Of a DNA stretch of 63,296 nt, positions 8,240 through 60,427 are shown piece after piece (position 1 is the stretch's first letter; every line of letters starts with the position of its first letter). Both the position numbers and the translations under genes were made by a program. Origin of the DNA: a virus (taxonomy: Duplodnaviria; Caudoviricetes); IMG/VR virus record IMGVR_UViG_3300017978_000310, positions 1-63,296 of that record, one strand, 5' to 3'. The notes beneath the pieces were generated by a model. The model saw only the letters and a program-made list of their open reading frames with translations. It was not told where the DNA came from and searched no databases.

Positions 8240-11200
8240 ATGGCAGAATTACAAAGAAACTTCCTAAAGGGGGTAATGAACAAGGATTTAGATCCTCATT
8301 TTCTCCCTGATGGTCAATATCGTGATGCACTAAATATTATTGTTTCCGATTCAGATGCTACGTTTAGTACTTTTGAAGGAGAGCATAATGGTTCTGTACA
8401 GAACTATTTAGGCAACACGCTTATGAATACTTCTTTGGGATTAACAAATGCCAAGTGTATTGGTGCTTTATCTTATGGTGCATCCAACTTAATTTATTGG
8501 TTAGTTACAGCAGATAATGCTGATGCTATTTACGAGTACAATGAGTCTCTTGATTTAACGACAATTGTATTAAAGTTTCCGAAGGCTCCGGGTGGTACAA
8601 CATTACTTAACTTTAATGAGAAATTTTTAGTAACAGGGATTAACTACATTAATGGTTTATTATTTTGGACTGATAATTATAATCCTCCAAGAAAGATAAA
8701 CATTGAGAGATGTAAGAACTTTGCAGTTAATAATTTTACTACTGTAACAGAAGCAGATATTAATGTTATTGTTCAGCCTCCTCTTTCATCACCTACAATA
8801 TCTTTCCCTTCTCTTGTTAATCCAAATCCGAATAACTTAGAAAATAAGTTTTTATATTTTTCATATAGATATAAGTATGTTGATGATGAATATAGTTCGT
8901 TGTCTCCATTTTCTCCTGTAGCATTTTTTCCTAAGCCTTTTGAATACGATTATGGTGTATCTGAAAATATATCCATGGTTAATAGCAAGAATGCTGTAGA
9001 TATTAAATACAATACTGGAGGACCAAATGTTAAAGAAGTTCAATTAATATTTATTGATACATTAAGCACAAACGCATATGTAATTGATAATATAAATAAG
9101 GAGGCTAGTCAATTTGGTAATAATCAAATTAAAACTTTCAGGTTCCAAAATAACAAAGTATATACAGTTTTACCTGCTGATCAAATAAATAGACTATTTG
9201 ATAATGTTCCGTTAAAAGCAAGGTCACAAGAATTAATTGGAAGTCGTTTAGTGTACGGTAACTATACTCAATTCTTTAACTTAATTGATTATACAGGAAC
9301 CCCTATTAATCCTAATTTTTCAGTATCTCTTGAAACAAGTGAAATTACAGATAACTTGCCTCATGCAACATTTAAAAGCAATAGAGATTATGAGGTTGGT
9401 ATAGTTTATTTGGATGACTATGGTCGTTCTACTACTGTAATAGTTCCAACTGCTAATACTAATACATTATTTATTCCATCTGATAAAGCAAATTATTCAA
9501 ACGACATAAAGATTACTATTGATGAATCTTATGCACCACCTGAATTTGCTACATATTATCGTTTTGTTTTAAAGCAAAATAAGCAACAATATTATAATAT
9601 ATTCCCGTTGACTTATTTTCAAGATGGTCAGTTTAAGTGGTTCTTAATAAACCAAGCAGATGTTGATAAAATATCTGTTGGATCATATTTATATTTAAAG
9701 AATGTTGGTTCCGATAGTAGCACTCAAATAAAGGTATTAGATATAGAATCTAAGTCTGCTAATTTTTTAAATACAAATAACCAAGGTCAACCAGCTGGTG
9801 TTTATTTTAGAGTAAAAATAAATTCATCTGCATTGCCAAATGTATATGTTTACAATAGATATAATTTTGGTTCTGCTGCGGTGTCATATCAGCCAGTATC
9901 TAATAAATTCAATGTAGCCGAAAAAGCTATTTTTTATGGAGTAGGAACAGCTTCTAATTTAGAGGTTACTGATGGTAATATTTATTCAGGAGATAATGAC
10001 TCGAGATTCTATATAGAAATAGAGTCTGTAGGTGTTACTAATAAATATCGAGTTTATGTTATTGAAAATGGAAGACCAAAAACTCAAATACTTGACAATC
10101 AAACAATTAATGTTGGTACTGATGTAACTATTAATTACACAGCTCCTAGCACAACAAATCCTTACTCTTTTAAATTCAGATTTACATCTGTATTAAATTT
10201 AAATGTAGGAGACTATTGGGTTGTAAATTGTAGAAATGGTGTAGTTGTTGCAAATGCAAGTTATAATATATTTGGAGGATTTAATTACTCTATATCAAAT
10301 AGTGTCCCTGCAACTTTATTAATGAATACAGATTGGAATATAGATGGTGCATATATAGGAGATAGGCCAATAAAACCAGGAGCTGTTTTATCATTTAAAA
10401 TAAAAGAGCCAGAAAATGGAAATATTGATACTGTTCAAACATTTATATCTACAAAAGAATATGTAAATATAGAGGAGTGGTTTATTGAAGATGGTGTATA
10501 TTTAAAATGGAACCAATTCTATCAAACAACAAATGTGTTTGCTGCACCTGTTAATTTTAGAAGAGGTCATAATCTATCTATTGTTCCCGGAACTAGCGGT
10601 AATACTACTATATATACGGTATCACAAGGTGGATCTATTTCTGCTTTCTCTCTTAGCTATCCTATATATATGTATATAAATGGATACAGAAATAGTGGAA
10701 CATCTACTATATCAATAACTTTTAATTTATCACAACAAGAAGAACCGACATTATTTGAAACGGTTCCTACCGATACAAACCAAGATATCTATTACGAATT
10801 AACTAATACATATCCTATTATAAATAATAGCCATCAGACAAATGGAACTAATCAAGTATTAGGTTCGGTTGATGGAATCGCATATCTTAAAAAAGAAGAT
10901 AGCGTGGCTTACCCTAACTATGACTTTAATGCTTTTGCTTGGAGTAATGGTGTAGAAAGCTTTAGGATTAGAGATGACTTTAATGCAACTACAATGCAGT
11001 TTAGTCCACGTGCTAACTCAACTGTTGAAGGATATGCAGAGCAAACACTTGTTCAGGCGTTGACATATAGTGGTGTGTACCAACAAACTACAGCCATTAA
11101 CAGACTTAATGAGTTTAACTTATCACTTGGTAATTTTGTCTATTTGGATTTGTTCTTTGGTTCAATTCAAAAGCTACATTCTCGTGACACAGATTTAGTC

Positions 11201-13225
11201 GTATTTCAGCAGGATAAGATATCAAAGGTTCTTTATGGTAAGAACTTAATTAGCGACTCTGTTGGTGGTGGAACGATTGCTTCTATTCCAGAAGTACTTG
11301 GAACACAAATTTCATATACAGGAGAATATGGTATTAGTAACAACCCTGAAAGCTTTGCTATTTGGGGTAATAACTTATACTTCACAGATACTAGACGTGG
11401 GTCTGTATTGCAGTTAACTGAAGCTGGTTTATTTGAGATATCATCAAATGGTATGAAGAACTGGTTTAAGGCACACTTAGATCCATCGACTCAAAAAATT
11501 GGAATGTTTGACCCATACTTTGAGCATTATGTTTTGGCAAGCAATGAGGATGCTATAGAATATTGTATATTCGATGTATCTGAAGATGCTGTTAGTTTTG
11601 GTTCTGGTTCTATAGCTAATCAATATGCATTCCGTATACAATCTAATAGTGAATGGTATATTAGTGTTCCAACAAACAATTGGCTAACCATAAATACTTT
11701 GTATGGAAATGGTGACTCGCTTATATATTTTAGTGCTTTAGCTAATAGTGGTGCACAAAGAAGTGTTACCATTTCAGTACAAGGATGTTCGGTTGATCCG
11801 CATGATGTTATTTTTACGCAAGCTAGTTTAATACCTACTACTACGATTGCACCAACGACTACGATTCCTCCAACTACAACAACTATAGCACCAACTACTA
11901 CATTACAGCCTGTTTGGTATAGAACGACAGCTTGTGTAGATGGATCAACCGTTTTCACAACTCAGCGAACAATAGGGACATTTGCGATTAATGATAGATT
12001 GACATTTGGTGGAGCTTTCTTTGTAGTTCAAGAGGAATTAACTACTCTTCCTGGTGGTCCATTAATTGCCATGACAGGTACTGGTTTAACAGGATGTCCT
12101 GCGACAACTACTACTATTGCTCCTACTACTACATTGCCTCCGGTAACATTTACGTATACTACGTCATGTGCTGGTGGAGCAGGGACAGGGGTAATTACAA
12201 TTACAAGCATTACAGGAGGAACAGGAACTGGCTATCAGTACAGCATCCAGCCTACGCCAGGTATTTGGTATGATTACCCTGCTACAAATCAATTGACAGG
12301 GTTAGCAAACAATACATATAATGTGGCAGTTAGAGATAGTTTAGGTAACGGATCAAGTATCACAGGAATAGTGATAAATTGTGGTTCTCCAACTACAACA
12401 GTTGCACCAACTACAACAGTTGCACCTACAACTACATTGCAACCAGTATGGTACAGAACAACTGCCTGCGTAGATGGGTCTACAGTCTTTACTACACAAA
12501 GAACAATCGGATCGTTTGCTATTAATGATAGACTAACATTCGGTGGAGCATTCTTTGTGGTTCAGCAAGAGTTATACTCAAATCCAGGTGGATCATTAGT
12601 AGCTATGGTAGGAACTGGACTAAGTGGATGCCCTGCAACAACAACGGCACCAACTACCCCTGCCCCTACTACTACATTGGCTCCAATTAACTTTAGCTAC
12701 AGTACCTCATGTGCAGGTGGAGCTGGTACAGGAGTGATTACAATCACAGGTATATCAGGTGGTACAGGAACGGGATATCAATATAGTATTCAGCCTACAC
12801 CGGGTATTTGGTATGATTATCCTGCAAGCAATCAGTTGACTGGATTAGCAAATGGAACATATACCGTAGCCGTACGTGATAGCTTGGGCAATGGAACTAG
12901 TACGCCAGGTATATCAATATCTTGCGTTGATCCAACGACTACTTTAGCACCCACAACTACTGTAGCACCGACAACTACTGTACCACCAACAACTACAACT
13001 ATAACACCGACAACTACTGTACCACCAGCCACTTGTCGTATATATAGATTTATTGATGATACAGGAACAGGTGGAAATGTGATATATACACCATGTGGGA
13101 CTAATACAGAAATAGTGGTATACGTAGATCCATTTACATCGCCAGCATATTGTGTTTTAGATGGAACTTTCCCATTCTCTCCTGATGGAATAATTATAGA
13201 TGGGCCGCTTGCTAATTGTACTTAA
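8240..13225 (+). CDS. Tail stabilisation/nozzle protein with C-terminal BACON-like, mucin-like PTTT and SprB-like repeats
   Basis: GVMNKDLD..LPDGQYRDALN and LFWTDNYNPPRKIN are typical of P22 gp10/crAss-like stabilisation proteins; SNSEW..WLTI..GNG..AN.G..R looks BACON-like; five PTTT tracts. Confidence 0.75.
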   Translation: MAELQRNFLKGVMNKDLDPHFLPDGQYRDALNIIVSDSDATFSTFEGEHNGSVQNYLGNTLMNTSLGLTNAKCIGALSYGASNLIYWLVTADNADAIYEYNESLDLTTIVLKFPKAPGGTTLLNFNEKFLVTGINYINGLLFWTDNYNPPRKINIERCKNFAVNNFTTVTEADINVIVQPPLSSPTISFPSLVNPNPNNLENKFLYFSYRYKYVDDEYSSLSPFSPVAFFPKPFEYDYGVSENISMVNSKNAVDIKYNTGGPNVKEVQLIFIDTLSTNAYVIDNINKEASQFGNNQIKTFRFQNNKVYTVLPADQINRLFDNVPLKARSQELIGSRLVYGNYTQFFNLIDYTGTPINPNFSVSLETSEITDNLPHATFKSNRDYEVGIVYLDDYGRSTTVIVPTANTNTLFIPSDKANYSNDIKITIDESYAPPEFATYYRFVLKQNKQQYYNIFPLTYFQDGQFKWFLINQADVDKISVGSYLYLKNVGSDSSTQIKVLDIESKSANFLNTNNQGQPAGVYFRVKINSSALPNVYVYNRYNFGSAAVSYQPVSNKFNVAEKAIFYGVGTASNLEVTDGNIYSGDNDSRFYIEIESVGVTNKYRVYVIENGRPKTQILDNQTINVGTDVTINYTAPSTTNPYSFKFRFTSVLNLNVGDYWVVNCRNGVVVANASYNIFGGFNYSISNSVPATLLMNTDWNIDGAYIGDRPIKPGAVLSFKIKEPENGNIDTVQTFISTKEYVNIEEWFIEDGVYLKWNQFYQTTNVFAAPVNFRRGHNLSIVPGTSGNTTIYTVSQGGSISAFSLSYPIYMYINGYRNSGTSTISITFNLSQQEEPTLFETVPTDTNQDIYYELTNTYPIINNSHQTNGTNQVLGSVDGIAYLKKEDSVAYPNYDFNAFAWSNGVESFRIRDDFNATTMQFSPRANSTVEGYAEQTLVQALTYSGVYQQTTAINRLNEFNLSLGNFVYLDLFFGSIQKLHSRDTDLVVFQQDKISKVLYGKNLISDSVGGGTIASIPEVLGTQISYTGEYGISNNPESFAIWGNNLYFTDTRRGSVLQLTEAGLFEISSNGMKNWFKAHLDPSTQKIGMFDPYFEHYVLASNEDAIEYCIFDVSEDAVSFGSGSIANQYAFRIQSNSEWYISVPTNNWLTINTLYGNGDSLIYFSALANSGAQRSVTISVQGCSVDPHDVIFTQASLIPTTTIAPTTTIPPTTTTIAPTTTLQPVWYRTTACVDGSTVFTTQRTIGTFAINDRLTFGGAFFVVQEELTTLPGGPLIAMTGTGLTGCPATTTTIAPTTTLPPVTFTYTTSCAGGAGTGVITITSITGGTGTGYQYSIQPTPGIWYDYPATNQLTGLANNTYNVAVRDSLGNGSSITGIVINCGSPTTTVAPTTTVAPTTTLQPVWYRTTACVDGSTVFTTQRTIGSFAINDRLTFGGAFFVVQQELYSNPGGSLVAMVGTGLSGCPATTTAPTTPAPTTTLAPINFSYSTSCAGGAGTGVITITGISGGTGTGYQYSIQPTPGIWYDYPASNQLTGLANGTYTVAVRDSLGNGTSTPGISISCVDPTTTLAPTTTVAPTTTVPPTTTTITPTTTVPPATCRIYRFIDDTGTGGNVIYTPCGTNTEIVVYVDPFTSPAYCVLDGTFPFSPDGIIIDGPLANCT
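11909..12930 (+). repeat. Tandem duplication of a ~178-codon unit
   Basis: PVWYRTTACVDG.. begins at 11909 and 12443 (534 bp apart); proteins nearly identical, DNA synonymously diverged. Confidence 0.9.
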
Positions 13226-13238
13226 ATAAAATAAAATA

Positions 13239-14993
13239 ATGAGGGAATTAAGGTATGTATGTGCTCAACCTGCTAACACGTTTTATGTATGGCAGGTTGA
13301 GACAATAATTAATAATTTTACAAAGAATGGAATAAGCCCTAGCAGTATTGATATATTATTGTCAATTAATGATAATGTTATTCCTGAGGATTGGATTAAG
13401 TTAAAGAATTATTATAGTGGCGTAAATTTTTATTTCTATAATGATACAAGGGATGATAAGTCATATCTACCTGGTGTTTATTTTTTCTTACTAAAAAGGT
13501 ATTCAGAAACTAATGACTTGTCAGATAAGGTATTATTCTTGCATGACAGCGACATAGTATTCACTAGGAGAGTAGATTTCTCTCAAATGCTTAATGATAA
13601 CATTTGGTATTTAAGCGACACAAATAGCTACATAAACTACGACTACATTCAGCAGAAAGGTAACCATGTTTACGAGAGTATGTGTGACATAGTTGGCATC
13701 AATAAACTGATACCAAAACTAATGAATTCTAATTCAGGTGGAGCTCAGTATATAGTTAAAAATACTACTCCTGATTTTTGGGACAAAGTAGAAAAGGACT
13801 CTCTTAAGCTATACAACCATTTCTGTGCTACCGAGCATTTACATATACAAAAGAATGACCACGACTATCCAATACAAAAATGGACAGCAGGTATGTGGGC
13901 TGTGTTATGGAACGCTTGGTTGTTTGGTCATGAAACTAAGGTAGATAAAAGATTAGATTTTGGGTGGAGTACCAATGATATTAGTGATGTAGATAAATAT
14001 TGTATCTTACATAACTCTGGCGTGCTAGATAAAAATAGCGGATTGTTCTTTAAGACAGACTACTTAAACAAGTTGCCTTACAATGACAATTTAGACATAA
14101 CCAAAACAAAGGCATCTTATTATTATTGGTCAGAGGTAAAAGAAGCAGGTAAAAAATCATTTATAAATAAAAAAGAAGTAAGCGATAAGGTATCTTTTAT
14201 TTGCACCACATACGGCAGGTTTAATTGTGTACGTAGAATTGTTGCACAATACCATGCACAGACTCACCCTAATAAAGAGTTAATAATATTTAACACAGAT
14301 GTTGACCATCCGTATGAATTAGGGTTTAATGATCCATCAATTATTGTTGTTAATAATAATATCGATTATAAAACTCAAAAGCCATACACTAATCGTGGTG
14401 ACATTTGCAGAGATGCTATTATCTATGCTTCAGGGGATTATTTTATGTTAGCAGATGATGATGATATATACCTTCCTTGGCATATGGAGCAAGCAGTAAA
14501 TGGAATCATTCTAAATAACAAAGATGCTTGGAAGCCTGAGAAAAGTTTTTACGCAAACATTAATCATCTTGAGATATCTAAGAATGTAATGGAGGCATCT
14601 GTTATTGTTAAAATGGATAGGATCCGGGAGATTGGATTTAGAAATGATATCACAGGATACGAAGGATTATCTTGGTATATGCAATTAGCTTCTGAGGGCC
14701 AGCTTAATGAGCAGGATACATACTATGTTCCTTCTTATTGTTTTAATTGGTCTGATCCACAGGAAATAGGTGGACACAAGCAAAGTGGACACATAGATGA
14801 TGTAAATAATTTTGATAATCATAAATTAAATTGCACAGATTATGCTACTTCACCGCTTACGCCAATTAATAAAGATGAGCTTTATGGGGAGTATTTAAAG
14901 TATTATAATTTTATTATTGAGAACAAGAGTTTATTTAATAATGATTTATTTGAAAAATATATTTCAAGTCATTTATTAAAAGATAATATGTAA
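13239..14993 (+). CDS. Two-domain glycosyltransferase (GT-A domain + GT2-like domain)
   Basis: N-domain LFLHDSDIVF (DxD); C-domain VSFICTTYGR..YFMLADDDDIYLP is a classic GT2 pattern. Confidence 0.8.
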   Translation: MRELRYVCAQPANTFYVWQVETIINNFTKNGISPSSIDILLSINDNVIPEDWIKLKNYYSGVNFYFYNDTRDDKSYLPGVYFFLLKRYSETNDLSDKVLFLHDSDIVFTRRVDFSQMLNDNIWYLSDTNSYINYDYIQQKGNHVYESMCDIVGINKLIPKLMNSNSGGAQYIVKNTTPDFWDKVEKDSLKLYNHFCATEHLHIQKNDHDYPIQKWTAGMWAVLWNAWLFGHETKVDKRLDFGWSTNDISDVDKYCILHNSGVLDKNSGLFFKTDYLNKLPYNDNLDITKTKASYYYWSEVKEAGKKSFINKKEVSDKVSFICTTYGRFNCVRRIVAQYHAQTHPNKELIIFNTDVDHPYELGFNDPSIIVVNNNIDYKTQKPYTNRGDICRDAIIYASGDYFMLADDDDIYLPWHMEQAVNGIILNNKDAWKPEKSFYANINHLEISKNVMEASVIVKMDRIREIGFRNDITGYEGLSWYMQLASEGQLNEQDTYYVPSYCFNWSDPQEIGGHKQSGHIDDVNNFDNHKLNCTDYATSPLTPINKDELYGEYLKYYNFIIENKSLFNNDLFEKYISSHLLKDNM

Positions 14994-14998
14994 ATTTG
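14991..14998 (+). promoter_or_regulatory. Bacteroidota -7 promoter box
   Basis: TAAATTTG overlapping the glycosyltransferase stop codon, 7 nt before ATG 15006. Confidence 0.5.
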
Positions 14999-15005
14999 TA
15001 AATAT

Positions 15006-15728
15006 ATGGCTTATACTATCACATATTCTCCCAATCAAAACGGATGGACATCGTTTCATTCTTACATTCCTGATTGGATGGTTTCAATGAATAACGCTCT
15101 TTATACATTTAAAGATGGGAATTTGTATAAGCATAATTCTAATGAAGTTAGGAATAGCTATTATGGCACGTTGTATCCATCTAAAATAAAAACGATATTT
15201 AATAATGAGCCTTATCAAACTAAGCAATTTAAAACAATTGCAACCAACTCCACTAGTGCTTGGGACACTATTGTGGCATCTGATCAGGGTGATGGGTTTA
15301 TTGATGCTGATTACTACGCTTTAAAAGAAGGTGTATATTATGCATATATAAGAAGAAATCCAGATGACAATAATTTGTCTATGATTTCTGCTCAAGGTGT
15401 GGGTAATGTTACGACATACGCATCCAATGTACTTACATTTAATTTTCAAATTGGATTTATTGTTAGTGTTGGTGACGATCTATATTGGATGAACGGAAGC
15501 ACTATGACATTTGCTGGAACTGTTACAGCTCATAATGCAAATACAATCACTATAAATCAAACAGGGATTGCTCCTGCTAACGGAAGTTTTATTCTTTACA
15601 TTAAGAATAGCGTAGCAGAATCAAGCCCTACACGAGGAACCTACCTTGAAGTTGAGTTTACTAATAATGATACAGAGTACACAGAAATGTTCATGATAAC
15701 ATCTGATGTATTTAAATCATATTCTTAA
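15006..15728 (+). CDS. Tail protein, probably the separated C-terminal part of the stabilisation protein
   Basis: TITYS..GWTSFHSYIPDWM..LYTFKDGNLYKHN resembles the C-terminal propeller segment of such proteins. Confidence 0.6.
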   Translation: MAYTITYSPNQNGWTSFHSYIPDWMVSMNNALYTFKDGNLYKHNSNEVRNSYYGTLYPSKIKTIFNNEPYQTKQFKTIATNSTSAWDTIVASDQGDGFIDADYYALKEGVYYAYIRRNPDDNNLSMISAQGVGNVTTYASNVLTFNFQIGFIVSVGDDLYWMNGSTMTFAGTVTAHNANTITINQTGIAPANGSFILYIKNSVAESSPTRGTYLEVEFTNNDTEYTEMFMITSDVFKSYS

Positions 15729-15734
15729 TATAAC

Positions 15735-15742
15735 TATCTTTG
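15735..15742 (+). promoter_or_regulatory. Bacteroidota -7 promoter box
   Basis: TATCTTTG 3 nt before ATG 15746. Confidence 0.55.
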
Positions 15743-15745
15743 CAA

Positions 15746-16153
15746 ATGGAATTTAATATTAGGTTGCTAAACGACAGCGACTATGATAACACACTAGTTA
15801 AATGGTGGCGTGATTGGGATTGGACAGCACCAGGAAAAGCATCCTTGCCATTAGGTGGCACAGGTGGTTTTATGGTATCCAAAGGAGATGTAGATATTTG
15901 TGCAGGGTTTGCATATTTTACTAACTCTAATATTGCTTGGTGTGAGTTTATTATTTCCAATAAAGAGTACAAAGACAAAGATCGCAATCAAGCGATAGAA
16001 TATTTGATAAATTCTTTGTCTGAGTCTTGCGAAAATGCTGGATATAAAGTTATATTTACAAGTGTTTCGCATAAGAATTTGATTGATAAATACCAGAATT
16101 GTGGCTTTATTAAGACACAAGAAGGTGCAACAGAAATGATAAAATTTTTATAA
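15746..16153 (+). CDS. GNAT-fold acetyltransferase-like protein
   Basis: IRLL..DY start, central beta strands, KNLIDKYQNCGF end; precedes the ejection proteins. Confidence 0.55.
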   Translation: MEFNIRLLNDSDYDNTLVKWWRDWDWTAPGKASLPLGGTGGFMVSKGDVDICAGFAYFTNSNIAWCEFIISNKEYKDKDRNQAIEYLINSLSESCENAGYKVIFTSVSHKNLIDKYQNCGFIKTQEGATEMIKFL

Positions 16154-16154
16154 T

Positions 16155-17018
16155 ATGGCAATAGGAACAGCAGCTGCAATAGGATTAGGCATATCTGCCG
16201 CAGGTTCAGCTAGTCAAATCATACAAGGTGCTAGTGCTAAATCTAAAGCAGATGTAGCCGCATCTAATGCTGCTAATCAATTAGCACGTATACAAGAGGC
16301 TGATAGGCTTCAATCATTACAAGTACCAACTCTTGGACTTGAGTTAGCACAACAAAATATTCAAGCACGCCAAGCACAGCAACTGCAAGGATTGCAAGAC
16401 ATAGGAGCTGCCGGTGTTCTTGGTGGATTAACTTCCATGAATCAGCAAGGACGTGCACAAGATTTGCAATTAGCAGCACAAGCTAATGAGATGGAGGCTC
16501 AAAGAAATCAAATGGTGGCACAAAATGCACAGCAAATTGAACAGAGAAGAGCACAAAGAGAAGGTGCTTTGGCATCGGCTAGATTAGCAGGTGCACAAAC
16601 AATGGCAGCTCAAGGGATGAGTAATGTTCAAGCAGGTATTGCTGGATTAGGTCAGACAGCAGGTCAATTTGCTTTGGCCGCTTATAAAAATAGACCATTA
16701 TATAATACAGAAACTAATACACAAACTAACGCATCAATGGGGTCGGCTGAAGGTCAACAAGCTGCATTAAATGCACGAGCAGCATTTGCACCACAGATTG
16801 CATCTATGAGGCCAGAAGGTATTAATATAAATAATCCAACACTAAACCAATCTAGAGCAAATGTAGCCCAAGCAAATTATATGGATGGTCTTCGTGGATC
16901 ACAAGGTCAATATGAGGCAAGTCAATTAGCAGGGCTTAGGGCAGCACAAGGAAATTTTGAACAACAATATCAATTTGATCCTTTTAATAATCAATACATT
17001 CAAAACGCACCCTTTTAA
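16155..17018 (+). CDS. Internal virion/ejection protein
   Basis: Hydrophobic G/A-rich N-terminus, A/Q-rich helical body. Confidence 0.6.
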   Translation: MAIGTAAAIGLGISAAGSASQIIQGASAKSKADVAASNAANQLARIQEADRLQSLQVPTLGLELAQQNIQARQAQQLQGLQDIGAAGVLGGLTSMNQQGRAQDLQLAAQANEMEAQRNQMVAQNAQQIEQRRAQREGALASARLAGAQTMAAQGMSNVQAGIAGLGQTAGQFALAAYKNRPLYNTETNTQTNASMGSAEGQQAALNARAAFAPQIASMRPEGININNPTLNQSRANVAQANYMDGLRGSQGQYEASQLAGLRAAQGNFEQQYQFDPFNNQYIQNAPF

Positions 17019-45884: not shown

Positions 45885-47429
45885 ATGATAGTTAAAGAAA
45901 TCTCATTCGGCAAAGAAGGCCGAGACAAATTAATCAAAGGTGTGGATGCGGTGGCGAACGCTGTCGGCTCTACATTAGGGGCACGGGGTCGGACTGTGCT
46001 CATCGAGTCAGAGCAACACGTTGGAGGGATCACGGTCACAAAGGATGGGGTGACAGTTGCTAAGTCAATTAACTTATTGGACCCGGCTGAGAACCTAGCG
46101 GTGATGATCATGCGAGAGGCATCAGAGAAGACTGCCAACTCGGCAGGCGATGGGACAACGACAAGTATGGTGCTGGCACAGGCCATCATCCATGAGGCCA
46201 TGGCTCAGATTGAGCCGAGCGATAACTTGACACAGGTGCTAAGAGATATCCAAGAGGCGAGCACAGAGGTGCTGGCTAAGTTAGATCAGATGTCGGTCGA
46301 GATTACTAACGACAAGCTTGAGTCAGTTGCTACAATCTCTGCTAATGGGGACACGGACACGGGTGGCATAATTGCTGATGCGTACAGTAAGGTGGGGCTG
46401 ACCGGAGTGGTGAGCGTTGAGCCAAGTAAGGATGCGATGACATACTCGGAGATTATTAGTGGCATGAAGATAGATCGTGGGTTCACAAGTAAGTACTTTG
46501 TGACTGACCATAAGAAGCAAGAGTGCGTGCTAGACGATCCATATATCTTGGTGACTGACCAGCCTATTAGTCATATTAATGACATCTTCCCAATACTTGA
46601 GTATATACTTGAGGGTAACAAGTCATTGCTAATCATTGGCGAGTTAGAGGAGAATGCTCTGAACACGCTGAACGCCAACAAGATTAAGGCGAAGTTAAAG
46701 GTGTGCACAATTACTCCTCCGCAGTTTGGCTACAAGAAGCATCAGTTGATGGCAGACATTGCTCATGCGACAGGGGCTAAGTATTTCTCAGAGCAGACAG
46801 GGGACAACTTGGCGATGGTGAGCATCGATGACCTGGGGCGTGCTAAGAAGATTATTAGTGGCCGGTTCAATACTTTGATCCGTGAGCCAGGTGGCTTGGT
46901 GGATGAGCGAGTGGCAGAGCTACAAGAGCAGTTAAATGTGGAGACAAGCGGGATCGAGAAGGACTTCTTAAAAGAGCGTATAGCTAACCTTGGTGGTGGG
47001 GTTGCGGTGATCTATGTTGGGGCACAGTCTGACATTGAGCAGAAGGAGAAGAAGGACAGAGTGGACGATGCGGTGTGTGCTGTCAGAGCTGCACTTGAGG
47101 AGGGCATTCTACCAGGTGGTGGGGTGGCACTAAAAGATGTGGCGGTTGAGATGGCTGTTTTAAACAAAGGGGCGTATATTCTTAAAAACGCTATGTTGGC
47201 TCCTATGAACAAGATATTATCTAATGCTGGCTATGACCTACATAGTGAAACAATTAGTAGTATGACAGAAGGCGTTGGGGTAAACGTGGTGAACATGGCC
47301 ACGGCTAATATGATGGACATAGGGATCATCGATCCAACGAAGGTGACAAAGGAGAGTTTAAGGAATGCTGTTAGCGTAGCAACTACATTACTTTCTACCG
47401 ACACAGTTATTACTAATATTAGGGCATAA
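45885..47429 (+). CDS. groEL: Chaperonin GroEL (Cpn60), no GGM tail
   Basis: TKDGVTVAK, AGDGTTT, EEGILPGGG and GIIDPTKVT motifs. Confidence 0.95.
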   Translation: MIVKEISFGKEGRDKLIKGVDAVANAVGSTLGARGRTVLIESEQHVGGITVTKDGVTVAKSINLLDPAENLAVMIMREASEKTANSAGDGTTTSMVLAQAIIHEAMAQIEPSDNLTQVLRDIQEASTEVLAKLDQMSVEITNDKLESVATISANGDTDTGGIIADAYSKVGLTGVVSVEPSKDAMTYSEIISGMKIDRGFTSKYFVTDHKKQECVLDDPYILVTDQPISHINDIFPILEYILEGNKSLLIIGELEENALNTLNANKIKAKLKVCTITPPQFGYKKHQLMADIAHATGAKYFSEQTGDNLAMVSIDDLGRAKKIISGRFNTLIREPGGLVDERVAELQEQLNVETSGIEKDFLKERIANLGGGVAVIYVGAQSDIEQKEKKDRVDDAVCAVRAALEEGILPGGGVALKDVAVEMAVLNKGAYILKNAMLAPMNKILSNAGYDLHSETISSMTEGVGVNVVNMATANMMDIGIIDPTKVTKESLRNAVSVATTLLSTDTVITNIRA

Positions 47430-47461: not shown

Positions 47462-47550
47462 AATCCGAGTTGGTAATATTGCAGCTTACTAATTCGGATT
47501 ATCAAGGAAACTTGACCGCCCCCTTCGCTGCAATCGTTGGGGGTTTTTTT
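47462..47550 (+). ncRNA. Candidate structured leader RNA (three hairpins, loop-loop pairing, U tract)
   Basis: 15-bp stem, GAAA-capped stem, C5/G5 stem + T7; loop ATTGCAGC is complementary to GCTGCAAT. Confidence 0.55.
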
Positions 47551-47553
47551 ATT

Positions 47554-48051
47554 ATGGAAATCTGGAAACCAGTAAAAAATTACGAAGGCTTATACGAAAT
47601 AAGTAACTTAGGAAGAGTAAATAGTTTGTTTACTAGAAAAGGTAGAATTATAATACCTAAAACAGAAAAAGGTGGATACCAAAGGATTGGTCTTAGAAAA
47701 GATAATTCACAAAAATTATTTAATGTTCACAGATTGGTTGCTGAAACTTTTTTAGAAAAAGAAGAGTACCAAAATCAGGTAAACCATAAAAATAAAATAA
47801 GATCCGACAATAGGGTTGATAATTTAGAATGGGTATCATCTATTGAAAATCATTTTCATAAAAATTTAAATTCAAATACAACTAGTAAATACGTAGGTGT
47901 AGCATGGGATTCAAAAAAAAGAAAATGGGTTTCATATATAAATTTTAATAAAAAGAAAGTACATTTGGGTGTTTTTAATTCTGAATCTGAAGCATATAAT
48001 GCAAGATTAAATTTTCAATTAAATAATAATATAAAAAATAAATACGCATGA
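47554..48051 (+). CDS. NUMOD4-HNH-AP2 homing endonuclease
   Basis: MEIWKPVKNYEGLYEISNLGRV; HRLVA..VNHKN..DNRVDNLEWV; SKYVGV..KW..HLGVF. Confidence 0.9.
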   Translation: MEIWKPVKNYEGLYEISNLGRVNSLFTRKGRIIIPKTEKGGYQRIGLRKDNSQKLFNVHRLVAETFLEKEEYQNQVNHKNKIRSDNRVDNLEWVSSIENHFHKNLNSNTTSKYVGVAWDSKKRKWVSYINFNKKKVHLGVFNSESEAYNARLNFQLNNNIKNKYA

Positions 48052-52950: not shown

Positions 52951-55900
52951 ATGGCAAGAATTAGTACATATCCCAATGATACAAATGTTATAGGGGCAGA
53001 TAAGTGGATTGGATCAGATGCAAATAATAGCAACGAAACAAAGAACTTTACAGCTGATGCTGTAGCTGCTTACTTTAATAGAGCAAGCGTTATTGATACA
53101 GGACAGTTCTCTTGGGACTTTGTTGTTTACTCTGATACTGTTATTCAAACAGACAAGACATTTTCTTTAGTTGGCTACACAAATACAAACATTAATATTA
53201 ATCAGTTAGAGGGTATTTTAAAAGTATCCTTCTTAACTCTCGCTAATACAACTCCAGGGGTATTTATTCAAGATCAATGGCTAAATAAAATTATCTTAGC
53301 CCATATCCCTAATTCACCAAGCAGTTATGCTTTGTATCGTATTGACGATATTGAGCTGGTTGGAGATTTTTATTATTTGACTACGCATCTTGTGGATGCT
53401 TCAACAGGTAATATTCTTGTTAACACCCCTGTTGCTTTTGGTATTTTTGAGGGTGTATCAGGAACTAATGGTACATCAGGAAGTTCAGGCACATCAGGAT
53501 CAAGTGGTATCAACGGAACCATGGGTACCTCAGGTACAAGTGGTACGACAGGAACTTCTGGTTCTAGTGGAACTACGGGAACCTCAGGGACTTCAGGTAC
53601 GACAGGTACTTCAGGTACGACAGGTACAAGTGGTATATCGGGTGATAGATATCGTGGCACATCAACAACTTCATTTACATTAGGAAATGCAGGCACAATT
53701 ACAACTCAATTAGGGTTGTCATTTACTACTGCACAATCTATCATTATTGTTTATGATTCTAGTAATTACCAAGAGTGCGAGATTATATCCTATGATGCAG
53801 GTAATGGACTATTAACTTTTGCTGCACCTAATAGAACAGTTGGAGCAGGAACATATAATTCTTGGACTATCAACTTAGATGGTGCAAGTGGTGGAGATGG
53901 ATCGTCAGGTACATCGGGTACAAGTGGAGTGAACGGAACAAGTGGAGTGAACGGAACAAGTGGTACTAATGGTACTTCAGGAACAACAGGTACTTCAGGG
54001 TCTTCGGGTACTACAGGTACATCCGGATCTAGTGGAGTAAATGGTACATCAGGAACGACAGGAACTTCTGGTATTAATGGCACAAGTGGGTCGAGTGGAT
54101 TTAATGGGTCAAGTGGCACATCAGGTTCTAGTGGACTTACAGGTACATCAGGTGTCTCCGGATCTTCAGGAACCTCAGGTGCAAATGGTATAGCAGCTGG
54201 TAGAACTTTTTATTTCAACCAATCTCAAAACTCAGATGTATCACCATATAAGGTGTTAAGTGAGGAGCCATCGGGTGCTGTAGAGCAAGTGGTTACAAAA
54301 ACATTAACAGGTAGCCAACAAGGTGTTTTAGTTCAAGAGTTTTTAACTCCTCAATTAGGTTTCCCTATTATTCCATCGGGAGTTCAAAGATTTCATTTGC
54401 ACTTTTTAAAACCTGCATCTAATGATAACATTGATGCATATGTGAGTATTGAGTTAGCAAACTCAGCGGGTATATCATATGGTACTGTAATCGAATCAAA
54501 TAAATCATTAATTGGTTGGGTTAGTTCAACTTCATCTGTTGAAGTTTTTGTAGATATAACTTTGCCTACAACAGGTATAAATAGTACAGATAGAATGATT
54601 GTTAAGATTTATCTTGACAACAATACATCTTCTTCTAAAATTGTAAATTGGTATACAGAAGGCAATTCTGCTTATTCTTATGTAATAACATCTGTTGGTA
54701 CAAGTGCTGGTACATCAGGAGTAAATGGTACAAGTGGAACTAGTGGCACTACGGGTACATCGGGGACTGCTGGATCTTCTGGTTTAACAGGAACATCAGG
54801 TGTTAATGGAACGAGTGGTACAGATGGATCATCAGGAACAAGCGGTTCTACAGGATCATCGGGTGCATCTGGAACTTCAGGAACAAGTGGAGTTGATGGT
54901 ACAACAGGCTTGTCAGGAACATCAGGTACAAGTGGAGTTGATGGTACAACAGGTACTAATGGTACATCTGGAACTAGTGGCCTAGCAGGAACATCAATTC
55001 GTGTAGAACAGAATTTTGTAGCGACAGCAGGCCAAACTACATTTACCATTACAGGTGGATATACTATTGGACTTATTGATGTATACATTAATGGTGCTAG
55101 AATTTTACCTACTGACTATACAGCAACCAATGGAACAACAGTTGTATTATCAACAGGTGCTGCATTAAATGATACTGTAACGGTATTAAATTATACAGGT
55201 ACAATAGCTGGTGGTGTATTAGGAACAGGTACAACAAACTATGTGCCTAAGTTTACTTCATCTTCAACTATTGCAAATTCGTTAATTTTCGATAATGGCA
55301 CTAATGTTGGAATTGGAACTACTTCTCCTGCACAAAAATTAGATGTAAATGGTGCAATTAGAACATCAGGTAATTTCTTTGCAGTAAATAATACTCCACT
55401 TAGTACAAACGGAACAATTACATATCATGATACGGTTGGTTTAGTTTTAAAAGGTGCGACAGGTTTTGCATTTGATTTTTCAGTTTACAATCCTGCTGGC
55501 AATATTTTAATTTCAAATCCTACTGGTACTAATAATATTGCATTTAGTTCGGGTAATGTTGCAATATCCAATGGTAGTTTTAGTATTAATGGTGGAACTC
55601 AACCAACTGGTAACGGATTGCATTCTTATTTTGCATCAAATGTTTCAAACATTGAATCTTTGCAAGCTGGAGTAGCTTGGAGAGATTTATCAATAGCTGG
55701 TAATGATGTATATTTTAAAAGTGGTGGTATTGAAAGAATGCGAATTAATTCAGCAGGAAACGTTGGAATTAATTTAGCTAATCCATCACAAAAATTGATG
55801 GTAAATCAAGGTGCAACAGGTTTTAATCAAGGTATCCCTGCAACAAGTGGTTCAACACAAAATGGAATATTTAGATTAGTTCCTGCAAATGGAATTTATG

Positions 55901-56385
55901 GTGAAGTTTTAGACTTTGGAATGAATATTGCAACTACCTACGCATGGATTCAAGCAACAAATGCAGGCAATTTAGGAGTAAACTATGACCTTTCATTAAA
56001 TCCTAATGGAGGAAGTGTTGCAATAGCAAGGGCTGTACCAAATTACACACTTCATGTTAACGGGTCAGTAGCAGGGACTTCTGCTTATATCAATTTATCA
56101 GATAGTCGATTTAAGAAAAATATAAAACCATTATCTAATTCACTTTCAAAAGTTCTTCAATTAAGTGGTATTTCTTTTGATTGGAATAAAGAATTTGATG
56201 AATCAATTAATCTTGATGAATTAAATCATATTGGTTTACTTGCACAAGAAGTTGAGAAAATTATTCCTCAATCTATATTTACTGCAAATGATAAAAATAA
56301 AACTAAATCTGTTGCTTATACTGATTTAGTACCTGTGTTAATTGAAGCCATTAAAGAACTAAATGCAAAAATAGAAGCAAAATAA
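52951..56385 (+). CDS. Fibre protein with three Gly-Thr/Ser collagen-like blocks and a C-terminal S74 intramolecular chaperone
   Basis: (G-X-Y)n at ~53452-53643, 53881-54189 and 54697-54996; NVGIG repeats; SDSRFKKNI..GLLAQEV..LIEAIKEL. Confidence 0.85.
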   Translation: MARISTYPNDTNVIGADKWIGSDANNSNETKNFTADAVAAYFNRASVIDTGQFSWDFVVYSDTVIQTDKTFSLVGYTNTNININQLEGILKVSFLTLANTTPGVFIQDQWLNKIILAHIPNSPSSYALYRIDDIELVGDFYYLTTHLVDASTGNILVNTPVAFGIFEGVSGTNGTSGSSGTSGSSGINGTMGTSGTSGTTGTSGSSGTTGTSGTSGTTGTSGTTGTSGISGDRYRGTSTTSFTLGNAGTITTQLGLSFTTAQSIIIVYDSSNYQECEIISYDAGNGLLTFAAPNRTVGAGTYNSWTINLDGASGGDGSSGTSGTSGVNGTSGVNGTSGTNGTSGTTGTSGSSGTTGTSGSSGVNGTSGTTGTSGINGTSGSSGFNGSSGTSGSSGLTGTSGVSGSSGTSGANGIAAGRTFYFNQSQNSDVSPYKVLSEEPSGAVEQVVTKTLTGSQQGVLVQEFLTPQLGFPIIPSGVQRFHLHFLKPASNDNIDAYVSIELANSAGISYGTVIESNKSLIGWVSSTSSVEVFVDITLPTTGINSTDRMIVKIYLDNNTSSSKIVNWYTEGNSAYSYVITSVGTSAGTSGVNGTSGTSGTTGTSGTAGSSGLTGTSGVNGTSGTDGSSGTSGSTGSSGASGTSGTSGVDGTTGLSGTSGTSGVDGTTGTNGTSGTSGLAGTSIRVEQNFVATAGQTTFTITGGYTIGLIDVYINGARILPTDYTATNGTTVVLSTGAALNDTVTVLNYTGTIAGGVLGTGTTNYVPKFTSSSTIANSLIFDNGTNVGIGTTSPAQKLDVNGAIRTSGNFFAVNNTPLSTNGTITYHDTVGLVLKGATGFAFDFSVYNPAGNILISNPTGTNNIAFSSGNVAISNGSFSINGGTQPTGNGLHSYFASNVSNIESLQAGVAWRDLSIAGNDVYFKSGGIERMRINSAGNVGINLANPSQKLMVNQGATGFNQGIPATSGSTQNGIFRLVPANGIYGEVLDFGMNIATTYAWIQATNAGNLGVNYDLSLNPNGGSVAIARAVPNYTLHVNGSVAGTSAYINLSDSRFKKNIKPLSNSLSKVLQLSGISFDWNKEFDESINLDELNHIGLLAQEVEKIIPQSIFTANDKNKTKSVAYTDLVPVLIEAIKELNAKIEAK

Positions 56386-57423: not shown

Positions 57424-58119
57424 ATGGCATATTTATACAGACACATTAGGTTAGATAAAAATGAGCCATTTTATGTGGGGATTGCGACTCACTTAAAAAG
57501 AGCTTATGATAAATCTTCTAGAAAAAATAAAATTTGGAAATCAATAATTGCTAAAACTGATTATGAAGTTCAGATTTTATTTGATGATTTAACTAGGGAA
57601 GAAGCTTTAGAAAAAGAAAAAGAATTTATTTCTATTTATGGAAGAATAGATTTGAAAAATGGTACTTTATCTAATCACACAGATGGGGGAGAATATTTTA
57701 ATGGATTGTGGAATAAAGGAAGAAAGGCTTCAGAAGAAACTAAAGCTAAACAACGTGAGGCAGCAAAAAATAAGCCTCCTATGTCTGAAGAAACAAAAAG
57801 AAAAATATCTAATTCTCATAAAGGAAAATCTATTTCTGAAGAAACTAAAATAAAATTATCATTAATTAATATAGGTACAAAAAAAAATCCCTGGACTGCA
57901 GAAAGAAGGATTAAGATTGAAAATTCATGGAAATCTAAAATAGAAAAAATATCTCAATATGATTTAGAAATGAATCTTATAAAAATTTGGGACAATAGAA
58001 TAATTGCTAGTGAAGAATTAAATATAAAAAAAGATTGGATAAGAAATTGCTTAAGAGGTAAAATGAAAAATGCCGGTGGATTTATATTTTCTTATTTAGA
58101 TTCTAATATAATTTCTTAA
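57424..58119 (+). CDS. GIY-YIG-like homing endonuclease with NUMOD3 repeats
   Basis: YLYRH..FYVG..RAY; three SEETK repeats; C-terminal HTH. Confidence 0.85.
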   Translation: MAYLYRHIRLDKNEPFYVGIATHLKRAYDKSSRKNKIWKSIIAKTDYEVQILFDDLTREEALEKEKEFISIYGRIDLKNGTLSNHTDGGEYFNGLWNKGRKASEETKAKQREAAKNKPPMSEETKRKISNSHKGKSISEETKIKLSLINIGTKKNPWTAERRIKIENSWKSKIEKISQYDLEMNLIKIWDNRIIASEELNIKKDWIRNCLRGKMKNAGGFIFSYLDSNIIS

Positions 58120-58140: not shown

Positions 58141-58410
58141 ATGAAAATAGACTTTAATTTTAGCTTATTGGATTTGGATGGTAATCCAATTGAAAATGCA
58201 AACGTAGGAAAGCTTATTGCTAACATCCTTGTACAACAATCTAAAGGCGATCCACTTAAGTTTTGGGATTGGGCTTTAGATTTAAATAAAGGTAAAGAGC
58301 TAGATCTTGACTCTTCCGATCAGGAAACATTTAGAAACTTTATTAAAGAAAATGAGCAGATTACAATTATTGCTAAGGCTCAGATTCTTAAAGCTTTAAA
58401 GAAAGATTAA
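58141..58410 (+). CDS. Hypothetical protein
   Basis: 89 aa, A-rich start. Confidence 0.6.
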   Translation: MKIDFNFSLLDLDGNPIENANVGKLIANILVQQSKGDPLKFWDWALDLNKGKELDLDSSDQETFRNFIKENEQITIIAKAQILKALKKD

Positions 58411-60427
58411 TTTCTTTTATTACATCCTCAGCAGAGATACTCTTATGGCATTCAAATTGTCTTGGAGTATCTTTGTGTCTTGGGCACCAATCCCAATCTC
58501 CTTTGTCAAATTTTAAATTAGGATCGTTCCAGCATCCGTTGCATACTGATTTGTTTTCGACACGAATACATTGAAATTCGTGTGATTCCACGGAAAAGTT
58601 TGCTATCATAACCACAGGTTTGCCTAAAGCCCAAGCCAGCCAGCTTACGCCTGAGCCTAATCCAATAAAAAACTGACTCATGTTTATTAATGACATAGTA
58701 TCTTCTATGTTGTGATTAATAATCTGCTCGCAATTATCAAATGGGTTTTCTTCTAGAGACACGTTTATAACTTTGTACCCTTTCTCGTGCAAGTAATTAA
58801 TAACACCTTGCCATCCTTCTTTGGTCCAAAACTTACACCCGGCTGTTGAGTTGGTTGCAATAGTAACTGTCTTTTTAATATATACCTTAGATTTAGTTGG
58901 CTTGTACTTTAACTTGGGCTTAATCTCGCTAAAATCTAATCCAAGAATATTAGTAGCAGCTTGTTGTAATGGGATAGTATTTGGCAAGACAGGCTCACGA
59001 TTTGAATCATAGTACCAGCCTATGTTATATTGTGCTGCGATGTTCTCAACTTTTGATCCTGGCTCTACTATTTCTATCTCAGGATAGTCCAGTATATTTG
59101 CAAAAAAACTGGACAAAATTACTTTGCAGTTATGCTTTTTTTGAAACTCTAAAGCGTAAGGAGCCCAAGCAATATTGTCACCAAGTGATTTACTATCGAT
59201 ACAAATCAAAACACGCTTTCCTTCTAAATTAAGCGTACTTTCGTAAATCTTCTCCCCTTTCTCATATACTTCAACAGACCATTTCTCGTAGTATTGTCTG
59301 TTTAATCTAGCCCAAGAATTGTTCGAAATTGTGTTCTCGTAAACAACTTCACCTATACCATTTTTCCATACTAGGTGGAACCAAGATTTGACAGCAGATT
59401 TTATCTCAAAATATGGGCCGTTAACATTGTGTTCTATTATCTGAACGTCTTGATCTTCGATTGGATTTTCTAAACATTTTGTATATGTAATAGATAGTTT
59501 AGTTACAAATTCCATCCAATTGTCATATGTAGGAGTAACATAGTTAGCTTTGATTGTATTTAAGTCTGTGTCAATTGGCTGTATGTAAGCCGCATATCTT
59601 CCGTGGTACTGTGGTAGGTTATGTCCAATAATTGGTAAGTTATATGCAATAGCCTCACGCAATGCAAGTGGATTGCATTCAATTGTGCTATTGAACATAA
59701 AGACATTAGAGTACTTTAAAAAATCATCTACATCATCACGTTCTCCCCATACTTTAACATTAGGAGGTAAGTCTTTCATCAACGGCTCCCAATACTCTTG
59801 GAAGTTTCCTGCTTGGTTTCCAACAAAGTGAAATATCCAATCAGGATTCTTTCTTGCAATCTCTATGCCCTCAGCTTGATTTTTTCCTGGTGTCCACAAA
59901 CCAACATTAACGACATACTTTGTGTCTTCTTGTTTTTCGGATTCTTTAGGATCAATAGGGAATTCAATAACATACTTTGCCTTTGTAGGCATATTCTTAA
60001 ATGTAACTTCTTTATGATAACTCGAGCAGAATGCATATGCATCAGGATGAAACTTTCTTTCTTTATCCGGATTAAAGAATACATCATGACAAGTCTCAAT
60101 AATGCGATGTGATCTTGTTGGCGTGTATAACTCTGCCATTACATCGTGATCAAATCTCTCAGCCACATCATGAAGATGAATGATATCAGGCTTTATACTT
60201 GCTACTATGTCAAGTAATTCTGATTTGGTATCACCAAGAGTATATACTTTGTTGCCAAGTATTTCTTTTATTGCATTGCGATGAACCACAAAATCTGCTG
60301 TAAAGAACCTATATTCAACTACGTGTATATCGTACATTTCGTTTAATAATTGTACTTGCTTAAGAAGAAAAGATGGCATCCCTCCTGTAGATAAGTGAGG
60401 GGCTAAGTATAAAATCTTGGATTTCAT
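58388..60427 (-). CDS. GT4-like + TibC/AAH-like (autotransporter O-heptosyltransferase family) fusion
   Basis: PHLSTGGMP, KNQ and FNSTIECNPL..REA (GT4); KRVLI..SLGDNIAW, FFIGLGSGVSWLAW and C-x2-C-x15-C-x11-C. Confidence 0.85.
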   Translation of the reverse strand: MKSKILYLAPHLSTGGMPSFLLKQVQLLNEMYDIHVVEYRFFTADFVVHRNAIKEILGNKVYTLGDTKSELLDIVASIKPDIIHLHDVAERFDHDVMAELYTPTRSHRIIETCHDVFFNPDKERKFHPDAYAFCSSYHKEVTFKNMPTKAKYVIEFPIDPKESEKQEDTKYVVNVGLWTPGKNQAEGIEIARKNPDWIFHFVGNQAGNFQEYWEPLMKDLPPNVKVWGERDDVDDFLKYSNVFMFNSTIECNPLALREAIAYNLPIIGHNLPQYHGRYAAYIQPIDTDLNTIKANYVTPTYDNWMEFVTKLSITYTKCLENPIEDQDVQIIEHNVNGPYFEIKSAVKSWFHLVWKNGIGEVVYENTISNNSWARLNRQYYEKWSVEVYEKGEKIYESTLNLEGKRVLICIDSKSLGDNIAWAPYALEFQKKHNCKVILSSFFANILDYPEIEIVEPGSKVENIAAQYNIGWYYDSNREPVLPNTIPLQQAATNILGLDFSEIKPKLKYKPTKSKVYIKKTVTIATNSTAGCKFWTKEGWQGVINYLHEKGYKVINVSLEENPFDNCEQIINHNIEDTMSLINMSQFFIGLGSGVSWLAWALGKPVVMIANFSVESHEFQCIRVENKSVCNGCWNDPNLKFDKGDWDWCPRHKDTPRQFECHKSISAEDVIKEINLSLKL

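Follow-up and report, generated by a model that had tools for sequence, protein, structure and literature searches.

We analysed the 63,296-bp virus record IMGVR_UViG_3300017978_000310 over its whole length (hereafter the window), which is a complete record with direct terminal repeats, and focused on a glycosyltransferase (GT) gene at 13239..14993 (+, 584 aa) and on the open reading frame (ORF) that precedes it at 8240..13225 (+, 1661 aa), which encodes a muzzle-type tail protein with five threonine-rich tracts. Gene context makes it likely that the enzyme is a cytoplasmic O-glycosyltransferase of these tracts, which form linkers displaying small beta-domains on a crAss-type muzzle protein. 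Its N-terminal domain (N-domain) belongs to PHROG 4417, and members of this family were found next to genes with Thr tracts in viral, bacterial-genome and isolate phage sets. The initial annotation had described five PTTT tracts followed 13 nt downstream by a GT gene, and this was confirmed: the first tract begins exactly at 11834, the TAA of the muzzle-type ORF ends at 13225 and the ATG of the GT gene lies at 13239.

To describe the neighbourhood of the family, ORFs were called mechanically in 80 viral loci with relatives of the N-domain. In L046 no ORF was called across the match, which left 79 loci, and the GTs of this set are 55–80% identical to that of the window. A tract was defined as at least seven Thr/Ser in 10 residues, with at least four Thr and at most one Gly. 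Tracts were present in the gene directly upstream of the GT (-1) in 61 of 78 loci, and at -2 and -3 in 23/72 and 20/62, whereas downstream they were seen in 0/76 genes at +1, 2/73 at +2 and 1/69 at +3. GT and -1 gene share a strand in 78/78 loci, and the median gap between them is 12.5 nt. When the viral GTs were collapsed at 90% identity, 25 of 33 clusters had a tract at -1 and none of 32 at +1, and 30/33 had one within -1 to -3. A set of 80 loci from bacterial genomes, more distant from the window GT (31–49% identity) and examined with a stricter criterion (a run of at least six Thr/Ser with at least five Thr), gave the same picture, with poly-Thr in 43 of 76 genes at -1 and 0 of 79 at +1. 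In Bacillota prophages the tracts lie on genes -6, -5 and -1, and by size these genes could encode capsid, small head and tail-tube proteins.

Isolate phages formed the third set. A tblastn search of the 584-aa GT against 50,697 phage records matched 77 of them, always within aa 1–312, and in all eight isolates that were inspected (Enterococcus phiFL1A, Chryseobacterium MA9V-3, Arcanobacterium TPWB06, Staphylococcus vB-SscS-F1, Lactobacillus Semele and iLp84, and Lactococcus P1046 and CHPC836) poly-Thr ends, or lies within, proteins beside the GT. These proteins are the major capsid or major tail protein in six of the isolates and are unannotated in two. The one-sided association in three independent sets thus supports the suggestion of the initial annotation that the GT may act on the Thr tracts of the neighbouring virion protein.

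In the 1661-aa protein, the concentration of Thr runs in aa 1199–1661 is far above chance. This part holds 16 runs of at least three Thr, 14 of them PTTT, against none in aa 1–1198 and two in the other 49 ORFs of the window (15,881 aa), and the Thr content of the protein is 24% in the tail versus 7.7% in the core. The reading of the product as a tail protein holds, and the protein can now be placed in the muzzle type; a single mucin-like block does not hold, since the tracts are linkers between the possibly BACON-like domain, the A-B and A'-B' pair and domain C (Table 1). The core is 34% identical over its whole length to aa 1–1072 of gp097 of Cellulophaga phage phi38:1. The first added domain gives a weak match to Pfam BACON_2 (E 0.059, 13.7 bits against a 25-bit cut-off, profile positions 4–83 of 94), and Pfam searches with the separate domains of the array returned nothing else meaningful. 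The two units A-B and A'-B' share 149 identical residues of 185/181 aa, and 399 identical positions of 555/543 in the DNA.

An AlphaFold2 (AF2) model of A-linker-B, with a mean predicted local distance difference test (pLDDT) score of 84.6, contains two all-beta domains with an unstructured linker between them. Foldseek comparison of the A-B unit with the PDB gave no match at E<=0.001 (best E 0.085), the weak rows including FN3 and phage decoration domains, and the modelled fold can be named only as small beta domains. The whole 1661-aa protein had 0 matches to PDB sequences at E<=1. All five linkers are kept in place, with length changes, in the sister locus L092, which is on the same contig as L004, the locus of the sister phage GT.

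Table 1. Positions of the muzzle-type protein, its linkers and domains, the two-domain GT and the second GT gene in the window.
Feature	Position	Strand	Remarks
Conserved core, muzzle-type virion structural protein (aa 1–1099)	8240..11536	+	phrog_14478 'virion structural protein', E 7.5e-194
First added domain (aa 1100–1198), possibly BACON-like	11537..11833	+	not present in unsplit relatives
Thr-rich linker 1 (PTTTIAPTTTIPPTTTTIAPTTTLQP; aa 1199–1224), proposed O-glycosylation site	11834..11911	+	kept in place, 5 aa longer in L092
Domain A (aa 1225–1286), small all-beta	11912..12097	+	AF2 model, pLDDT blocks 91–94
Thr-rich linker 2 (PATTTTIAPTTTLPP; aa 1287–1301)	12098..12142	+	pLDDT ~74, without secondary structure in AF2 model
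Domain B (aa 1302–1383), beta-sandwich, weakly FN3/Ig-like	12143..12388	+	AF2 model
Thr-rich linker 3 (PTTTVAPTTTVAPTTTLQP; aa 1384–1402)	12389..12445	+	
Second unit copy: domain A', Thr-rich linker 4 (12632–12685; aa 1465–1482), domain B'	12446..12931	+	
Thr-rich linker 5 (PTTTLAPTTTVAPTTTVPPTTTTITPTTTVPP; aa 1565–1596)	12932..13027	+	7 aa shorter in L092
Terminal domain C (aa 1597–1661) and stop codon	13028..13225	+	no Pfam family at meaningful score
GT N-domain (aa 1–305), PHROG 4417, GT-A fold, D103-x-D105 and H258; proposed initiating Thr O-glycosyltransferase	13239..14153	+	
GT C-domain (aa 317–584), GT2-like, D406-D409 acidic motif; proposed glycan-extending transferase	14187..14993	+	
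Separate ORF, C-terminal part of muzzle protein	15006..15728	+	Pfam crAss_MUZ_C (PF25729), E 5.8e-14, 52.7 bits against a 27-bit cut-off
Second GT gene (GT4 and GT9-like)	58388..60427	-	Glycos_transf_1 E 2.6e-12, Glyco_transf_9 E 5.3e-7

The N-domain matches the phrog_4417 profile ('unknown function') at E 5.4e-70 (236.8 bits, aa 5–303 against positions 2–291 of 293) and has no Pfam family at E<=0.1 and no NCBIfam family. Metagenome protein sets contain more than 1,500 relatives, and clustering at 50% left 826 representatives. PDB sequences searched with a profile built from 66 N-domain sequences gave only chance matches (geminin, E 0.03). The AF2 model built from these 66 sequences has a pLDDT of 97.2 and adopts a GT-A fold, Rossmann-like alpha/beta, which matches solved GT-A enzymes over most of the domain. 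The fold is closest to retaining GT8-type enzymes; glycogenin is the best match, and LgtC and WbbM are among the closest solved folds. In a comparison with predicted viral structures, only phage proteins of uncharacterised function matched closely, and GT8-like enzymes of giant viruses came next. In the model, the strands 97–102 and 106–108 enclose the H-D103-S-D105 motif, D105 and H258 are invariant in the 66 sequences and D103 is conserved in at least 90% of them. An extra W/Q/M-rich segment (Q213, W215, M219, W220) is conserved across the family as well. The motifs FYVWQ..NNF, SYLP, LFLHDSDIVF, GGAQY and WTAGMW reported in the initial annotation are all in the translation, in the order given there, and several of their residues (W18, D103, D105, G168, A169, Q170, W215, M219 and W220) are family-conserved. 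No membrane segment was detected in the 584-aa GT (maximal 19-residue Kyte-Doolittle mean 0.71), and residues 3–11 of the N-domain form a beta strand of the fold and not an N-terminal membrane anchor.

The C-terminal domain (C-domain) matches Pfam PF00535 at E 9.7e-4 over aa 319–429, and that of the sister GT (L004) scores 22.6 bits against the same family. Residues 317–451 also match SpsA (1h7l, E 6.6e-4). We found 820 homologues of the C-domain, and most of the 120 listed (61–70% identity) carry PF00535 in precomputed annotation. Other enzymes that act on sugars are often fused to members of the family or encoded after them. Fusions in 71 longer family members involve another GT domain (GT2, 6, 7C, 29 or 32) in 17 cases, a methyltransferase in three and a radical SAM domain in two, and the 33 cluster representatives of the viral set include 11 with a methyltransferase, seven with a fused radical SAM/SPASM and five with an extra GT. 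The radical SAM and SPASM pair is typical of peptide-modifying maturases. The seven representatives (L023, L025, L045, L049, L057, L059 and L071; 7/33) have the PHROG-4417 domain fused to radical SAM and SPASM and sit after proteins with very long poly-Thr/EAP repeats.

In L057, the second gene downstream of the PHROG-4417 GT shares 37% identity (E 1e-57) with the GT4 part of the window's second GT, whose C-terminal half shows about 40% identity to jumbo-phage and Microcystis phage genes. The second GT may belong to the same pathway as the cassette. Its gene is on the other strand, well away from the cassette, and is flanked by a homing-endonuclease-like gene (57424–58119).

Based on these data we propose the following model. 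The soluble two-domain GT is apparently co-transcribed with the upstream muzzle-type protein, and no terminator-like sites were found on the + strand between 8523 and 18700. In the cytoplasm of the infected cell, the N-domain, as a GT-A retaining GT8-like enzyme with D103-x-D105 and His258, would move the first sugar from a nucleotide-sugar to the Thr hydroxyls of the five PTTT linkers (aa 1199–1596). The donor would be a host product, because no nucleotide-sugar synthesis enzyme was found among the 52 ORFs scanned. The fused GT2-like C-domain would then lengthen the glycan, and the GT4/GT9 protein may lengthen it further. The products would be stiff, hydrated, protease-resistant mucin-type stalks that hold out the BACON-like, A, B, A', B' and C beta-domains at the tail muzzle. 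The analysis itself shows the anatomy of the locus, the modelled fold, the conserved residues of catalytic type and the neighbourhood counts; which acceptor and donor sugar are used, the anomeric outcome and any biological benefit are inferred.

Comparison with related phages showed that one gene of phi38:1 and elemoA_11-5C corresponds to two ORFs of the window, the core of the 1661-aa protein (aa 1–1099) and the ORF at 15006–15728. The latter aligns to aa 1077–1322 of phi38:1 gp097 (E 8e-39) and to aa 1237–1470 of the single 1470-aa protein of phage elemoA_11-5C (E 2e-36); against PDB sequences its 240-aa product gave chance matches only. The unsplit relatives phi38:1 and elemoA have neither Thr tracts nor a GT, and in the window the two conserved muzzle parts are separated by a 562-aa linker-and-domain array and the GT gene. 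We identified 61 viral loci with the muzzle C-part, 30 unsplit and 31 split. In two of the 61 (L109 and L114) there is hardly any DNA upstream. Nine of the 61 carry the GT, all nine are split with the GT between the two parts, and in eight of them the large upstream ORF has true poly-Thr linkers, L113 being the exception. Among the 52 muzzle loci without a GT, a true poly-Thr run was not observed; three passed the loose criterion, L127 and two others, and the tracts of these two others were viewed and are not poly-Thr runs. The nine GTs are 39–80% identical to that of the window and their muzzle C-parts 34–82% (68–82% in 7/9), which suggests that the tract-plus-GT module was repeatedly acquired or exchanged in the muzzle lineage.

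We also considered that insertion of the GT had split the muzzle gene and rejected this, as 22 of the 31 split loci have no GT; the split is thus independent of the GT, and the junction is more aptly called a hot spot for insertions, one that accepts varied cargo. At the same junction, two loci without a GT, L093 (6540–8969) and L101 (6534–8969), have another ORF of 809–811 aa with no Thr tracts. In addition, three of the relatives of the A-B array, the metagenome proteins P0394, P0395 and P0410, have the A-B domains at the N-terminal end of the muzzle C-part (PF25729), to which they are fused, and not at the C-terminus of the large protein.

Another acceptor would be a rather unlikely explanation of these observations. 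The GT could act on envelope polysaccharide, a lipid-linked glycan, phage DNA or a small molecule, and adjoin Thr-rich genes as co-inserted accessory cargo. The presence of LgtC (lipo-oligosaccharide) and WbbM (O-antigen) among the closest folds, the GT-less insertions of L093 and L101, and a C5 cytosine methylase gene in the phage (28407–29741) are consistent with this. However, hitch-hiking leaves the one-sided pattern unexplained (61/78 against 0/76 in the viral loci, 43/76 against 0/79 in the genome loci), the pattern recurs beside capsid and tail-tube genes of unrelated Gram-positive phages, GT and tracts co-occur almost perfectly within the muzzle lineage, and the GT is without a membrane segment. 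Phage GTs that glycosylate modified cytosines are described in the available parts of two reports (10.1101/2023.12.21.572611; PMC13326640). DNA glycosylation was considered for the methylase gene, which is on the - strand (E 5.5e-42) and adjoins an SNF2/ResIII helicase, and was set aside, as no TET/JBP, hydroxymethylase or nucleotide-sugar synthesis family was matched among the 52 ORFs scanned.

It is also unlikely that the GT glycosylates its neighbour on Ser, Thr or Tyr of the globular A, B or C domains, with the tracts serving as flexible spacers or as a docking tag. Glycogenin, the best fold match of the N-domain, modifies a Tyr; the globular domains of the array are themselves rich in Thr, Ser and Gly; and the GT of L113 follows a protein without poly-Thr. 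Against this, the GT-adjacent capsid, tail and small proteins of Gram-positive phages have only one feature in common, a bare C-terminal run of 7–10 Thr, the consensus of homologues of the A-B array, which has only 32 relatives, keeps the Thr runs flanking the domains, and the linkers hold their composition but not their length between the sister phages. It is highly improbable that the GT gene is a remnant, decayed or without catalytic function, and that the linkers are unmodified spacers: the C-domain score would fit this, but the ORF is intact at 584 aa, the same length as in the sister L004, and the confidently modelled N-domain keeps its DxD and His and is 80% identical to the sister copy.

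Several observations weigh against linker glycosylation itself. The viral loci are interrelated, and at 70% GT identity only seven clusters are left, 6/7 of which are positive. The -1 tract is missing in 17/78 viral and 33/76 genome loci, and it was seen in only 3/28 of the loci titled Chitinophaga, Pedobacter, Mucilaginibacter, Sphingobacterium and kin. In L113, the protein upstream of the GT is Cys-rich and Asn-Thr-rich without poly-Thr. The tracts of the window are short T3–T4 runs between hydrophobic-Pro pairs, and most other loci have T7–T26, so that the substrate of this phage may be a poorer one or of another kind. The C-domain is below the Pfam GT2 cut-off (19.5 against 23.3 bits), and Pro/Thr linkers occur without dedicated GTs too, as in cellulases. 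The targeting of the linkers is a prediction, though one with good support from gene context.

The structural genes of the window are related to those of podoviruses of Flavobacteriaceae, namely Cellulophaga phi38:1, phi40:1 and Calle (Pervagoviridae), Flavobacterium 'elemo' phages, Tenacibaculum Gundel and Maribacter Panino. The host indicated by these relatives is probably a Flavobacterium-type or other Flavobacteriaceae bacterium. Near-identical DNA was not found when positions 11000–16200 were compared with the phage collection by megablast. A GroEL-type chaperonin gene (45885–47429, +; Cpn60_TCP1, E 4.4e-54) is followed by an HNH/NUMOD4 homing endonuclease gene (47470–48051). The ORF at 52951–56385 (+) encodes a tail-fibre-like protein with Gly-Thr-Ser-triplet collagen repeats and a C-terminal S74 intramolecular chaperone domain, and its Thr/Ser-rich collagen stretch is a repeat kind distinct from the PTTT linkers.

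Further arrangements were seen beside other members of the family. In L086 (3164–3926, Arcanobacterium phage) the major tail protein that ends in a Thr run overlaps a short, nearly all poly-Thr ORF, and in L087 (3203–3925, Staphylococcus phage) a major tail protein of the same kind is followed by a gap and then a short poly-Thr ORF; these arrangements may produce a frameshifted or read-through longer form of the tail tube. We also inspected four of the chromosomal loci titled Chitinophaga and kin (L193, L201, L229 and L183), and two of the four have a cluster resembling those for ribosomally synthesized and post-translationally modified peptides (RiPPs). In L193 (5037–7970) and L201 (1497–8631), on Chitinophaga and Mucilaginibacter chromosomes, two-domain relatives of the GT (579–581 aa) are beside LanC-like genes, and L201 additionally has a C39-peptidase ABC exporter, HlyD and a methyltransferase. 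From their gene content, these two of the four loci look like RiPP clusters with a glycosylation step, that is, a peptide-modifying setting.

On a wider reading, which we hold to be about evenly balanced between true and false, a very widespread but hitherto unrecognised phage system would have PHROG 4417 as its founding enzyme. Thr runs would be a genetically encoded tag that a dedicated soluble peptide O-glycosyltransferase, distant kin of plant Hyp/Ser O-glycosyltransferases, turns into mucin-like stalks on capsids, tail tubes, fibres and muzzles in phages of Bacteroidota, Bacillota and Actinomycetota, and ribosomal peptides from RiPP-type clusters in soil Bacteroidota would be glycosylated by the same family. 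The window would then hold a modular version, with initiating and extending transferases fused and inserted together with a display array at the muzzle hinge. To our knowledge, self-glycosylation of phage particles has so far been documented for a few mycobacteriophages only, and our literature search found no paper on PHROG 4417, on poly-Thr virion tags or on GTs beside crAss-type muzzle genes. If the family acts as its neighbouring genes suggest, sugar-coated virion proteins would be common in aquatic, gut and dairy phages, with a bearing on how phages stick to hosts and mucus, on appendage stability, on recognition by antibodies or defence systems and on the reading of crAss-type tail structural maps. 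A new glycosyltransferase family would be defined as well, and glyco-engineering would gain a soluble enzyme of the bacterial cytoplasm whose acceptor tag, poly-Thr, is very simple.

Among known enzymes, the initial annotation had drawn a parallel between the phage GT and the plant and algal extensin O-glycosyltransferases of GT95 and GT96. HPAT (PF23452), the hydroxyproline O-arabinosyltransferases of plants and algae, corresponds to CAZy GT95, and the peptidyl-Ser galactosyltransferase to GT96. Kinship with them is weakly supported by sequence: one relative (P0204, 1 of 80 members scanned) comes near the HPAT cut-off (E 1.3e-4, 21.9 bits against 23.9), with a match collinear over about 230 positions (aa 9–242 against profile positions 9–230 of 307), and the protein of the window has none. 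The blank for HPAT in the window at E<=10 is weak evidence, since control genomes also gave no match, and five other phage records with family members were without a match to the HPAT and DUF7164 profiles, the control genomes being likewise blank. At E<=1, HPAT and DUF6492 (2/66 members each) are the only Pfam families matched by more than one member, all below their cut-offs and with the HPAT match being the longer, and in a language-model neighbour cluster HPAT is found on 10% of members. HPAT kinship is thus a lead, and membership of that family is not established. The likeness is that the plant and algal HPAT/GT96 enzymes are peptide-directed O-glycosyltransferases on Pro-rich repetitive proteins, where they place arabinofuranose on Hyp or galactose on Ser, and a peptide-directed role is proposed for the phage GT too. 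HPAT enzymes are Golgi type-II proteins with an N-terminal membrane anchor; the phage GT is without such an anchor, and its proposed acceptor is Thr and not Hyp or Ser.

The resemblance to GT8 is at the level of the modelled fold only, as Glyco_transf_8 was not matched in the N-domain at E<=0.1, nor in any of the 66 members at E<=1. Enzymes of the GT8 clan (glycogenin, LgtC, GlyE, the UGGT catalytic domain and the Skp1 alpha-galactosyltransferase) share 7–13% sequence identity with the N-domain, and, unlike them, the PHROG 4417 family has the extra conserved W/Q/M-rich segment. GlyE, one of these fold relatives, glycosylates the pneumococcal serine-rich repeat adhesin.

Virion O-glycosylation of the mycobacteriophages Che8, Corndog and Myrna was reportedly described by Freeman et al. 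(2023, Cell Host Microbe). In the available part of a further account, GTs of these phages O-glycosylate capsid and tail-tube proteins in the cytoplasm (PMC12363180). As in that system, so far as this part of the account describes it, the related Gram-positive phages have short tails on capsid and tail-tube proteins beside the GT. Mycobacteriophages were absent from the 77 phage records matched by the N-domain, and in this tblastn search no sequence kinship with the GTs of that system (Che8 gp110, Corndog gp38) was detected. Relative to the same part of that account, the system proposed here differs in its predicted acceptor, poly-Thr/PTTT linkers, in its putative target, a crAss-type muzzle with displayed domains, and in its host, probably a Flavobacterium-type bacterium. 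As for the crAss-type muzzle, aa 1–1099 of the 8240–13225 product and the 15006–15728 product are collinear with the single-gene forms (phi38:1 gp097 and elemo), whereas in the window the protein is encoded in two ORFs with the array and the GT between them.

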